Below, piece by piece: positions 111-33,255 of a stretch of DNA of 64,000 nt. This DNA comes from a virus: IMG/VR virus record IMGVR_UViG_3300031841_005424, positions 1 to 64,000 of that record, one strand, 5' to 3'. The first letter of the stretch is position 1. Every line of letters begins with the position of its first letter. The translations under genes were made by a program, and so were the position numbers. The notes under the pieces are model-generated. The model ran no database searches. It was not told the origin of the DNA and worked only from the letters and a program-made list of their open reading frames with translations.

Positions 111-313
111 TCTTTTTTCACCGCAAGTTTCTCAACATACGTGCAAGGCTCTTGAGTCGTCTCTCCATGTGCCCAATGAATAGTCAGGCGGTCATCTAGG
201 TGACCACTGTATGACTTACCATAAAACCCTCGCTCTACTTCAAGCACTATCCCAATCCCTACTTCGTTGTTAGAGTATTTGTGCTTTGCTCTTACCAAGT
301 CACCTACTTTCAC
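107..313 (-). CDS. KOW/SH3-like microprotein (MKVGDLV family)
   Basis: MKVGDLVRAK...GIGIVLEV...LTIHW pattern; 4-nt overlap with upstream gene. Confidence 0.7.
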   Translation of the reverse strand: MKVGDLVRAKHKYSNNEVGIGIVLEVERGFYGKSYSGHLDDRLTIHWAHGETTQEPCTYVEKLAVKKE

Positions 314-525
314 TCTTTGTTTTCCTCACGAAATATTCCGTTCTCTTCAGTAAGAACCATAACTTCGTATTTATTGGTGAGGGTGTTCCACAACTCTTTT
401 CCAGCAACAGAACACTCTTTTCCAAAATAACCTTTCAGCCACTGATGCCGTTCCCAAGAGTTGGGCATAGGAACAAAAATAGAACCTGCTTCATTGTTAG
501 TTCTTATGAACTGACATTGTTTCAT
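310..525 (-). CDS. hypothetical protein
   Basis: ORF with GGGAGA SD upstream, coupled to next gene. Confidence 0.6.
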   Translation of the reverse strand: MKQCQFIRTNNEAGSIFVPMPNSWERHQWLKGYFGKECSVAGKELWNTLTNKYEVMVLTEENGIFREENKE

Positions 526-539
526 TCTTTATTCTCCCT

Positions 540-570
540 AAAAAGGTGTTAGGCAACCAACCCACCTAAC
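540..570 (-). terminator. intrinsic terminator-like hairpin
   Basis: GTTAGGT...GCCTAAC stem followed by ACCTTTTT on minus strand. Confidence 0.5.
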
Positions 571-779
571 TGACTGTTTCCAGTCCCACCCGCAGATTAG
601 CAATCATGGAGTTTATCCCTCTCCCGCTTCATCCTTACAATCAGGGTATCTTCATTATACAATAGAGTGGTGGGGTTTAAACCCACAGGTGTTCAAGTAT
701 TCCTTTGTTAGACTCTTATTCCTTGAACCGGGTTGTGTATCGTCTCAGTAGAACCCTGCGTAATACCGCCTCACTCCAT
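540..779 (-). ncRNA. candidate structured non-coding RNA or long structured leader
   Basis: starts ~7 nt after a perfect TTGACA-17-TATAAT; nested pairings ATGGAGT/ACTCCAT, TTAC/GTAA, CAGGGT/ACCCTG, ATACA/TGTAT, GTTCAAG/CTTGAAC, GTGGG/CCCAC, GACTG-GAAA-CAGTC; ends in terminator-like hairpin. Confidence 0.45.
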
Positions 780-847
780 AATACAATTATACTCCATTTA
801 GAAGTAAATGTCAACCTTTTGTCTCGCACCAAGTCACCGACTTTCAT
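716..847 (-). pseudogene. truncated or overwritten MKVGDLV cassette
   Basis: begins MKVGDLVRDKR with the conserved junction, then runs into the promoter and loses family pattern. Confidence 0.4.
786..814 (-). promoter_or_regulatory. sigma70 consensus promoter
   Basis: TTGACA-N17-TATAAT exact consensus. Confidence 0.85.
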
Positions 848-4083: not shown

Positions 4084-4112
4084 ATGATATCAAGCTTTTT
4101 TCTATGTGTCAA
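4084..4112 (-). promoter_or_regulatory. sigma70-type promoter for tRNAs
   Basis: TTGACA-N17-TATCAT. Confidence 0.75.
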
Positions 4113-4252
4113 GCAATTTTTATGCGAGAAAACCTAATTTTATCTCCATGCTCTTTTTCGAGCTGTTTCTTTCTCTTCTCACAAATCTTCCTAAGAGCAT
4201 AAATATGCTGCTTTCTGCCATTGTCGATTCTGTACTCGAGATGATAAATCAT
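4109..4252 (-). CDS. basic 47-aa protein (not in track)
   Basis: MIYHLEYRIDNGRKQHIYALRKICEKRKKQLEKEHGDKIRFSRIKIA*; ATG abuts upstream stop. Confidence 0.5.
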   Translation of the reverse strand: MIYHLEYRIDNGRKQHIYALRKICEKRKKQLEKEHGDKIRFSRIKIA

Positions 4253-4666: not shown

Positions 4667-4695
4667 ATGATATCAAGTCGCAGAGATGATGTCAA
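4667..4695 (-). promoter_or_regulatory. sigma70-type promoter
   Basis: TTGACA-N17-TATCAT. Confidence 0.75.
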
Positions 4696-6243: not shown

Positions 6244-6272
6244 ATTATATGAAATATTCTCGAGAAAGTCAA
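6244..6272 (-). promoter_or_regulatory. sigma70-type promoter
   Basis: TTGACT-N17-TATAAT. Confidence 0.75.
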
Positions 6273-21737: not shown

Positions 21738-22038
21738 AGTCTTCCTCTATTAGATCAAATATAAAATTCTTCTCGTTCTCTGTCAAACCTAAATCATGCA
21801 AAATTTCCTCCCCTTGTTCTATTTCTTTCACAGAGGCTTTTCTCTTTCTCTTTCCCATTGAGCTTTTTTCAATCTTTATTCTTTCCACTATCTTAGCCAT
21901 CTCCAAATCGTTGTCGACATATAACTTTACTAATCCCCTGAAAAAGTTTCCCTGAGTTAATCTGTCATACCTCAACCTAACAATCATTCTAGCGTGCTGG
22001 TCATCAACTTCTTTAAATTGTATTATCTTCGTTTTCAT
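21724..22038 (-). CDS. hypothetical protein
   Basis: ORF coupled to IMPDH and sigma-r4 genes. Confidence 0.65.
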   Translation of the reverse strand: MKTKIIQFKEVDDQHARMIVRLRYDRLTQGNFFRGLVKLYVDNDLEMAKIVERIKIEKSSMGKRKRKASVKEIEQGEEILHDLGLTENEKNFIFDLIEEDFEEE

Positions 22039-33226: not shown

Positions 33227-33255
33227 ATAATAGTTCATTGTATCATGTTTGTCAA
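33227..33255 (-). promoter_or_regulatory. sigma70-type promoter
   Basis: TTGACA-N17-TATTAT. Confidence 0.7.

Follow-up and report, generated by a model that had tools for sequence, protein, structure and literature searches.

Look-alikes of transfer RNAs (tRNAs) encoded by phages, such as RNA C of phage T4, have been known for about 50 years. Modules of this shape also stand beside other RNAs, where they let tRNA-processing enzymes define the ends; such are the t-elements of plant mitochondria, the mascRNA of MALAT1 and the tRNA-like/microRNA transcripts of murine gammaherpesvirus 68 (MHV68). We know of no copies of the RNA C gene, rnaC, embedded in transfer-messenger RNA (tmRNA) genes. The function of RNA C itself is still unknown (PMC9697503), whilst mascRNA has been described as a tRNA-like processing module (PMC11693755), and a recent survey of tmRNA genes recognised a standard form, a form with a group I intron in the T loop and a permuted form (PMC11915505). 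Here we analyse positions 540 to 814, read on the minus strand, of a 64,000 nucleotide (nt) stretch of viral DNA from the IMG/VR record IMGVR_UViG_3300031841_005424, the whole of which is referred to as the window. The region is composed of a promoter, a conserved and strand-specific tRNA-shaped module at the transcription start (module A), and a separate leader and terminator cassette (module S); both modules move between contexts. The reading we favour, with a probability of about 0.55, is that of a composite unit in which module A is a tRNA mimic built on a class II tRNA frame and module S is a shuffled leader cassette.

The cloverleaf of module A

Loci encoding the 71 amino acid (aa) protein found downstream were collected as relatives of the region. 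Pattern scans of IMG/VR then located both modules, across about 35 contigs, and loop motifs served as anchors for a metagenome scan that yielded 78 further loci with module A. A model built from module A, R1, was used to align 93 copies, representing 64 distinct sequences (alignment A7). As this alignment is fitted to R1, a MAFFT alignment of 17 copies made independently of the model (A4) is relied upon where independence matters.

Module A folds into a cloverleaf of five helices, the first four of which are separated by spacers of 2, 1 and 1 nt (Table 1). This structure is the minimum free energy (MFE) fold of the window sequence alone and also the RNAalifold consensus of the MAFFT alignment, with double changes at eight of the 27 pairs. 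In that alignment 98.9% of cells are paired, compared with 92.4 ± 0.7% when shuffled and around 40% when the partner is slid. Amongst the 64 distinct copies, 98.5% of pair cells are paired and 12 of the 27 pairs have undergone double compensatory changes, with 88 double-change cells against 23.8 ± 3.8 in shuffles. The window copy itself scores 152 bits with R1.

The best-covarying portion is the minihelix formed by the acceptor-like stem and the T-like arm: the first acceptor pair alternates between A-U (36 sequences) and U-A (15), the second is G-C in 36, A-U in 13 and G-U in eight, and three of the five pairs of the T-like stem have double changes. The third acceptor pair is G3-C70, not the G3-U70 of an alanine-type acceptor such as that of tmRNA. 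Double compensatory changes are found at five of the seven pairs in the Y stem, where 98.6% of cells are paired. The X stem is paired in every cell, with one double change at each of two pairs, and has a U-G pair in 62 sequences. The D-like stem is invariant across 63 sequences, and covariation therefore neither supports nor refutes it. Given the conserved G-U pairs in the stems, the fold is strand-specific.

The loops of the X and Y arms are nearly invariant whilst their stems vary, and the same near-invariance extends to a 30-nt block at the 5' end (62 sequences). In the T loop, U occupies position 1 in 60 of 62 sequences, A occupies position 5 in all 62 and a purine always stands at position 4, with positions 2 and 3 variable. 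A divergent copy at locus L140 (97.6 bits), with the acceptor strands UGAAGCG and CGCUUCA, the D loop AGAGCA and an X loop of 15 nt, retains the X- and Y-loop sequences. A kissing interaction between the D and Y loops (GUAUU/AAUAC) was discarded, since at L140 the D loop has changed and the Y loop has not. Two possible resemblances, of a GGAAACA loop to Yfr2 and of the D arm to a loop of ribosomal RNA, are given no weight here.

A sequence-only reading of the region had instead drawn a single domain of about 174 nt, in which nested long-range helices close two hairpins, and this fold was scored on ten full-length relatives. The two hairpins, GTTCAAG/CTTGAAC and GTGGG/CCCAC, are borne out, with all cells paired and two double-change pairs in each. 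The helices around them are not. In the outer helix, ATGGAGT/ACTCCAT, pairing is broken at each of the three positions that vary; CAGGGT/ACCCTG has its A-U pair in the window only, and the long-range helices other than the outermost are broken in nine of ten relatives or, in the case of ATACA/TGTAT, paired in 55% of cells. Short forms of module S lack the partner strands (ACTCCAT, GTAA and part of the others). UGGAGUG pairs locally with CACUCUA (669-663), covarying between A-U, U-A, G-C and G-U.

Promoter and transcription start

The promoter TTGACA-17-TATAAT, singled out as the best in the window from the sequence alone, is indeed the sole exact match within the 64 kb. Its predicted start is A779, one base ahead of module A, and the start earlier placed at about 779 agrees with the comparison of relatives: in loci L012 and L013, 247 nt that are 95% identical to positions 779-533 of the window begin essentially there, whilst the flanking protein is only 61% identical. 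The promoter region in these two loci has diverged, yet TTGACG-17-TATACT is in place. More generally, relatives have -35 and -10 hexamers at the same distance despite differing surrounding sequence. A promoter matching at least nine of the 12 positions, and ending 5-13 nt (mode 7) ahead of the first acceptor base, was found in 49 of 66 distinct untruncated contexts of module A; in 37 of these 49 the -10 hexamer ends 5-8 nt ahead of that base. From this spacing, transcription would begin at or beside the first base of the cloverleaf.

Seven sites in the window match the sigma70 consensus with no more than one mismatch, all on the minus (coding) strand, against 0.57 expected. The six with one mismatch lie at 2310-2338, 4084-4112, 4667-4695, 6244-6272, 21758-21786 and 33227-33255. 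A second candidate promoter within the region, TTTAAA-16-TATAAT (681-654), was rejected; it is composed of the T loop and the junction between A and S, and is not conserved. The conserved promoter cassette, ACAAAAGGTTGACA..., starts directly after the eighth codon of a 43-aa open reading frame (ORF), which from its sequence looks like a microgene truncated by the arrival of the unit formed by the promoter, A and S.

Distribution and transcription of the modules

Four arrangements were found: a promoter followed by A and the long form of S, a promoter followed by A and the short form of S, a promoter with only S behind it, and A on its own ahead of a U run. S stands alone behind promoters at L003, L027-L029, L033 and L036, whilst A alone precedes a U run at L004, L018 and L023. 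At L004, moreover, a 101-aa ORF lies in the 470 nt that separate the 5' 113 nt (A) from the 3' 129 nt (S). What lies downstream of A in the 66 contexts is the long form of S in 22, the short form in 23, a U run in seven and other sequence in 14. Module A is found in tRNA clusters at L140 and L121. The distribution of both modules is patchy: the relative G003 lacks them at 95% completeness, whilst others have one or two copies.

At L040, a half tRNA comprising the 5' acceptor strand and the D arm (4175-4215, minus strand) lies directly before A and S. The end of a 90-aa ORF overlaps it and ARAGORN does not call it; six intact tRNAs are nearby. A second, partial copy of A occurs at L113 (10882-10996, minus strand; 45 bits), with an intact 3' half and a diverged 5' half, about 0.8 kb from a full copy.

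The window covers the initial 64 kb of a record (G000) that is 78.6 kb long and estimated to be 43% complete. Its genes are on the minus strand, and the region lies in an array of MKVGDL-type microgenes around 3 kb from two tRNA genes. The helicase of the phage shares at most 39% identity with its closest counterpart from an isolate, Microcystis phage Mel-JY01, so that the phage is near no isolate, and an identification as a T4-like cyanophage was dropped on this ground. Sequencing runs containing the stretch come from seawater, marine, estuary, sediment and freshwater metagenomes. There was no DNA or protein match for the region in the GenBank phage collection, and none for an invariant 21-mer of module A in a set of one genome per prokaryote species. 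An Rfam search, a check proposed by the sequence-only reading, returned no family for 540-814, whether the whole window was searched at the gathering threshold or 400-950 at E values up to 10.

Parts of A and S are represented in contigs from RNA libraries of four studies. Among these, a 142-nt insert bounded by adaptor sequence spans the junction of the two modules (619-760) with no differences, which is consistent with A and S being transcribed as one RNA. Contig cover stops near 776-785 in three RNA runs, but this is uninformative owing to loose ends from relatives.

Module S and the downstream gene

The short form of module S, 72-74 nt in length, consists of a 5' single strand, AAAUGAAG, and three adjacent hairpins; the long form has in addition a 42-nt insert in the loop of the first of these, H1. 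The structure was predicted with RNAalifold from 23 copies, and a second model, R2, was built from S. Both the GAAA-tetraloop hairpin (H2) and the terminator-like stem with its U run, which had been proposed from the sequence alone, are present, the latter being found by a terminator scan. H2 is swapped whole for another 5-bp tetraloop hairpin in L025, whilst in L003 and L036 the stem of H3 is GGCGAG/CUCGCC, with its loop kept and no U run following. A closing helix around H2 and H3 (GGUG/CACC) was rejected, as the ACC spacer is not conserved.

The earlier observation that 526-715 holds no credible ORF also stands. A 29-aa frame at 597-686, which has six amino acid changes from seven base changes in L012, was rejected along with two mini-frames, MKLPRL and MKRERDKLHDC: most substitutions alter the amino acid, and L012 has lost the ATG.

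S and a ribosome binding site (RBS) of the GGGAGAGAAGAAAATG type precede differing genes elsewhere (MNNIEDI.., MTDEIK.., MKVGDL..), and homologues of the 71-aa gene in L002 and L005-L011 have neither A nor S upstream. Hence S is a portable promoter-proximal leader and terminator cassette. It recalls, by role and not by layout (PMC4122927), the early-promoter stem-loop (PeSL) cassettes of T4-type phages. PeSLs are small units of promoter and terminator lying beside small genes, in plastic regions and at points of gene shuffling (PMC2839356, PMC4122927); the cassette here may be placed in a similar way, as S and its promoter stand ahead of unrelated genes in several phages and the unit in the window cuts into a microgene. 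However, a PeSL is a composite of terminator and promoter, whereas here the order is promoter, conserved structured leader of 75-116 nt, terminator and RBS; the promoter and S cassettes also number one to three per genome, and the phage lineage is not T4-like.

A function for S as a regulatory leader or attenuator, with or without A, and under the control of a ligand, a protein or, as in put-type RNAs, the polymerase, would be compatible with the composite unit that we favour, and has an appreciable if minority chance of being correct. The sequence-only reading had suggested such a role ahead of the gene at 310..525, which is plausible for the S part alone, the same S preceding unrelated genes elsewhere. 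The order of promoter, 75-nt structured leader, terminator, RBS and gene recurs ahead of varied genes, and within the leader the AAAUGAAG strand and the H3 loop, UGG..GGUUG, are conserved; H1 tolerates the 42-nt insert and H2 its wholesale swap in the manner of the peripheral stems of aptamers. No alternative, antiterminator pairing with covariation was found in S, however, and the covariation within S itself derives from single events. Furthermore, neither A nor S has an Rfam match, and as L003 and L036 keep H3 with a swapped stem and no U run, termination is not always the point.

Table 1. Features of the promoter, module A and module S unit in the window, with tmRNA genes of relatives that contain module A
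Feature	Position	Strand	Details
Sigma70-type early promoter	786..814	-	TTGACA (814-809), 17-nt spacer, TATAAT (791-786); 12/12 match
Putative truncated MKVGDL-type microgene, 43 aa	716..847	-	From ORF list; runs through the promoter into module A
Module A, 116-nt tRNA-like cloverleaf, five helices	663..778	-	MFE fold, RNAalifold consensus and covariation
Acceptor-like stem, 5' strand UGGAGUG	772..778	-	Pairs with 669-663, 7 bp
D-like arm GCG / GUAUUA / CGC	758..769	-	3-bp stem, 6-nt loop, no GG
X arm, in anticodon-arm position	730..756	-	5-bp stem GGGUU/AACCC, 17-nt loop opening with invariant CUACUGA
Y arm, in variable-arm position	691..728	-	7-bp stem GUUCAAG/CUUGAAC, 24-nt loop with GGAAUA twice
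T-like arm GUGGG / UUUAAAC / CCCAC	670..686	-	5-bp stem, 7-nt loop; directly abuts acceptor 3' strand
Acceptor-like stem, 3' strand CACUCUA	663..669	-	U662 next, in discriminator position; no CCA encoded
Module S, long form	540..657	-	AAUGAAG single strand, H1, H2, H3, U run
H1	649-644 with 591-586	-	Carries 42-nt insert 635-594
H2 GACUG-GAAA-CAGUC	585-572	-	GAAA hairpin
H3 terminator stem	570-548	-	U run 544-540; terminator scan
RBS GGGAG (538-534) and 71-aa gene (525-310)	310..538	-	From ORF list; conserved RBS
tmRNA genes with module A insert of about 117 nt	L084:214-673; L085:2222-2679; L119:1608-2067(-); L091:375-850; L107:94-580(-); L124:2371-2860(-)		RF00023

Copies of module A within tmRNA genes

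At loci L083-L085, L094, L119, L091, L107 and L124, module A lies inside a tmRNA gene, in a hairpin shortly after a tag frame such as ANNNNYELALAA, the real tag in L084. RF00023 matches these A-bearing genes, 460-490 nt in length, from end to end at 84-108 bits, treating A as a large insertion. ARAGORN calls tmRNA genes of 458-460 nt around A, with a false tag, 'DPDRGIRV', read inside it. The match to RF00023 is what these genes share with the tmRNA forms of the recent survey; a tRNA-shaped insert in the hairpin after the tag is absent from all three (PMC11915505). No description of a tmRNA gene form with a tRNA-shaped insert was found in the literature.

No tmRNA was detected in the window by ARAGORN, or in G000 by RF00023. 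Ordinary tmRNAs are present elsewhere in related near-complete records of large marine phages (G001:193170-193509, minus strand; G002:52650-53026, plus strand; G003:154191-154526, minus strand). A 407-nt tmRNA at L099 (8151-8557, minus strand) has an unrelated 44-nt insert of two hairpins at the hairpin position used by A elsewhere, and is followed downstream, to around 7824, by a terminator, a promoter, A and the long form of S. At L037 a tmRNA (1815-2117) lies 650 nt upstream of an S cassette, which stands beside tRNA genes. At L112 (around 610-1000) a promoter (TTGACT-17-TATGAT) and A are followed by a tmRNA of which only the 3' portion is present, with the pseudoknot region, the T arm and CGCUUCCACCA; the 650 nt upstream show neither a 5' nor a tag part. 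The locus may be a relic, or it may be half of a split tmRNA.

The 5' strand of H1 in module S is identical at 23 of 30 positions to the tmRNA hairpin that hosts A (blastn, E about 0.02 against a tiny database). Model R2 gave no match on tmRNA hairpins and a gapped alignment is suggestive, so that an origin of S as a tmRNA fragment, by descent from an A-bearing tmRNA hairpin, is only a lead. The 42-nt insert in the long form of S (594-635, minus strand) aligns to the 5' end, the Y-arm strands and the T-stem region of A, in the manner that A sits in the tmRNA, with a score of 44.5 against 27.9 ± 4.5 in shuffles (maximum 41.6). It may be an internally deleted copy of A, which would explain the complementarity of ATGGAGT and ACTCCAT as paralogy.

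These contexts suggest a further possibility, which we think unlikely: that module A is a mobile, protein-free, tRNA-shaped intervening element that has colonised the hairpins of tmRNAs, clusters of tRNA genes and promoter-proximal 5' leaders in marine phages, tolerated because it is closed off by its own acceptor stem, with the S leader descending from an A-bearing tmRNA hairpin.

Comparison with tRNAs and tRNA-like RNAs

The frame of module A is that of a class II tRNA (Leu/Ser; RF00005), with a 7-bp acceptor stem, 2 nt, a 3-bp D stem, 1 nt, a 5-bp stem in the anticodon position, a long extra arm, and a 5-bp T stem whose arm has a 7-nt loop and abuts the acceptor strand. However, the loop in the anticodon position is 15-17 nt rather than 7 nt long, that of the extra arm is 22-24 nt, and U8 (replaced by A or C), G18G19, conservation at positions 2-3 of the T loop and an encoded CCA are all missing. 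With such an anticodon loop, and a variable arm of 7 bp and 22-24 nt, A would be unable to decode normally. In the window (735-751, minus strand) and in all relatives the X loop begins with CUACUGA, which fits the pattern pyrimidine-U-NNN-purine-N and would display ACU, followed by 8-10 extra bases.

R1 matches tRNA-Leu(UAA) of related phages arm for arm at 20-25 bits, which is weak but consistent, and aligns the X arm to the anticodon arm of this true tRNA-Leu. Arm-for-arm alignments were likewise obtained with T4 tRNA-Ser (24.6 bits, the best match outside the family), T4 tRNA-Leu (16.2 bits) and T4 rnaC (15.0 bits). In the other direction, RF00005 has no match to module A at E values up to 10, and ARAGORN made no call on module A in the window, or on 12 copies of A with the intron option.

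T4 RNA C (species 1 RNA) is the closest described counterpart of module A, although the likeness is a resemblance of kind and not homology. Both are phage-encoded, tRNA-shaped and found with tRNA genes, and RNA C is a stable, non-decoding RNA, as A would be; its 3' 105 nt align to R1 over the acceptor stem, long extra arm and T arm with a score in the range of true class II tRNAs. It differs in having a 5' extension and a canonical UUCGAAU T loop, with no sequence homology beyond the tRNA frame; moreover it is a late RNA in T4 (PMC9697503), whereas module A lies behind early-type sigma70 promoters. The MFE z score of rnaC (L052, phage T4 70908-71046) is -4.57, and that of rnaD is -0.83.

As with t-elements, mascRNA and the MHV68 transcripts, module A is tRNA-shaped and adjoins other RNAs. 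Those systems are eukaryotic or organellar, however, whilst processing of module A is putative, and the loops of A are invariant in sequence, which suggests a function for module A itself. The Y RNAs of the YrlA type (RF02553; PMC4201824) are also non-coding tRNA mimics, present in some phages, but module A has no closing helix for binding Ro and no match to RF02553. A TROVE/Ro domain (PF05731) was absent from five phage records, G000-G004, of which G000 is only 43% complete.

Function of module A and alternative explanations

Module A most likely acts as a tRNA mimic, to judge from its shape and conservation. Under this proposal, the sigma70 promoter would start an RNA at, or one base ahead of, the first base of A, and the polymerase would run on through S, with the last hairpin and its U run serving as an intrinsic terminator. 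Transcripts that end at S would make up an RNA of about 240 nt, whilst others would continue past the terminator into the conserved RBS and the 71-aa gene. The 5' end of A might be made directly by initiation, or by RNase P, and the 3' end by the tRNA 3'-processing enzymes of the host, or by termination at that point. Cutting at the 3' end would free a stable RNA of about 116 nt and leave S as the 5' end of the messenger RNA (mRNA). The freed A could then present its X and Y loops to a tRNA-binding partner, as a decoy or sequestering RNA that reads no codon, whilst S would be an independent promoter-proximal cassette shuffled between genes.

Several points weigh against this account. Shape and conservation are the sole grounds for a mimic or decoy function, and the ends of the RNA, processing sites and an added CCA are not among the observations. 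Folding energies are no better than those of shuffled sequences, with MFE z scores of -1.29 for module A alone and -0.91 for S alone. Covariation barely tests the D-like stem, which is invariant, or the X stem, which is nearly so. Whilst the MAFFT alignment agrees with the one fitted to the model, its 17 sequences are closely related. The RNA-library data are contigs, from which strand and ends cannot be read, and the libraries may include DNA. Finally, no partner protein was found, nor a Ro/TROVE gene in the five related phage records.

Were module A a mere cis-acting processing signal, a form of punctuation akin to a t-element, it would set the ends of mRNAs and tmRNAs and the excised piece would be functionless. 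Its positions would suit this role, since it stands at the 5' ends of mRNAs, separates an ORF from S at L004 and L040, and lies both between neighbouring tRNA genes and within tmRNA; in addition, it is the acceptor/T-arm minihelix that covaries best. Such a signal, though, needs only the acceptor and T-arm shape, whereas near-invariance here takes in both the X and Y loops as well as the 30-nt 5' block, the loops being kept even in L140. Most copies begin at the transcription start, where a 5' cut is unneeded, and in seven contexts a promoter or ORF, A and a U run follow one another with nothing downstream to process. As the loops are conserved beyond the needs of shape and no 5' cut is called for in most copies, a pure processing signal is the less likely reading, and we regard it as improbable.

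It is very doubtful that A is a working, if aberrant, decoding tRNA of the class II, Ser-like type, with the anticodon ACU opening an enlarged loop. The CUACUGA sequence would fit positions Y32-U33-NNN-R37-N38, and the class II frame, the match of R1 to T4 tRNA-Ser and the copies in tRNA clusters all accord with this. The 15-17 nt loop does not, nor do the failure of ARAGORN and the Rfam tRNA model to find anything, the A or C at position 8, the D loop without GG, the unconserved positions 2-3 in the T loop and the copies embedded in tmRNA.

We give similarly little credence to A and S being selfish miniature DNA insertions, resembling miniature inverted-repeat transposable elements (MITEs), with no function at the RNA level. 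Their patchy distribution, with absence from G003, and varied insertion contexts would be in keeping with mobile DNA, as would remnants such as the partial copy at L113 and possibly the 42-nt insert in the long form of S. Compensatory changes, however, keep the helices intact with conserved G-U pairs, which the opposite strand would present as A-C mismatches; the orientation of the modules is fixed relative to promoters and genes; and the flanks, inspected by eye, have no terminal inverted repeats or target duplications.

The sequence-only reading's central idea, a conserved, structured non-coding RNA that is fed by a promoter and bounded by a terminator, holds, but its form as one rod of about 240 nt with a purine-rich bubble, resembling 6S RNA or acting as a decoy, is largely refuted: set against the perfect 7-nt complementarity of ATGGAGT and ACTCCAT in the window are the failure of the long-range helices in relatives, the separability of the modules (at L004 the two halves are split by a gene), the lack of an Rfam match to 6S RNA (RF00013) in the region, and an MFE z score for 540-779 of -0.12, no better than shuffles.

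Implications for marine phages

Module A represents an RNA family, as yet unannotated, of phages abundant in marine and estuarine waters; the current tools for tRNA, tmRNA and Rfam families miss or mis-annotate it. In module A, a strongly covarying frame is combined with predicted leaderless transcription from consensus early promoters, and the invariant loops point to a specific partner. Its contexts amount to natural experiments, with A on its own in some, joined to an mRNA leader in others and enclosed by a tmRNA in yet others. Should the intervening-element reading be true, host tRNA-processing enzymes would excise A, or the host RNA would carry an extra domain; this would be a fourth form of tmRNA, with the standard order, either split into two base-paired pieces or with a second tRNA-like domain. 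If A is excised by tRNA-processing enzymes, tRNA-type punctuation would operate in phage, together with a new mode of tmRNA interruption; if instead it stays in place, these phages would have a tmRNA with two tRNA-like domains.

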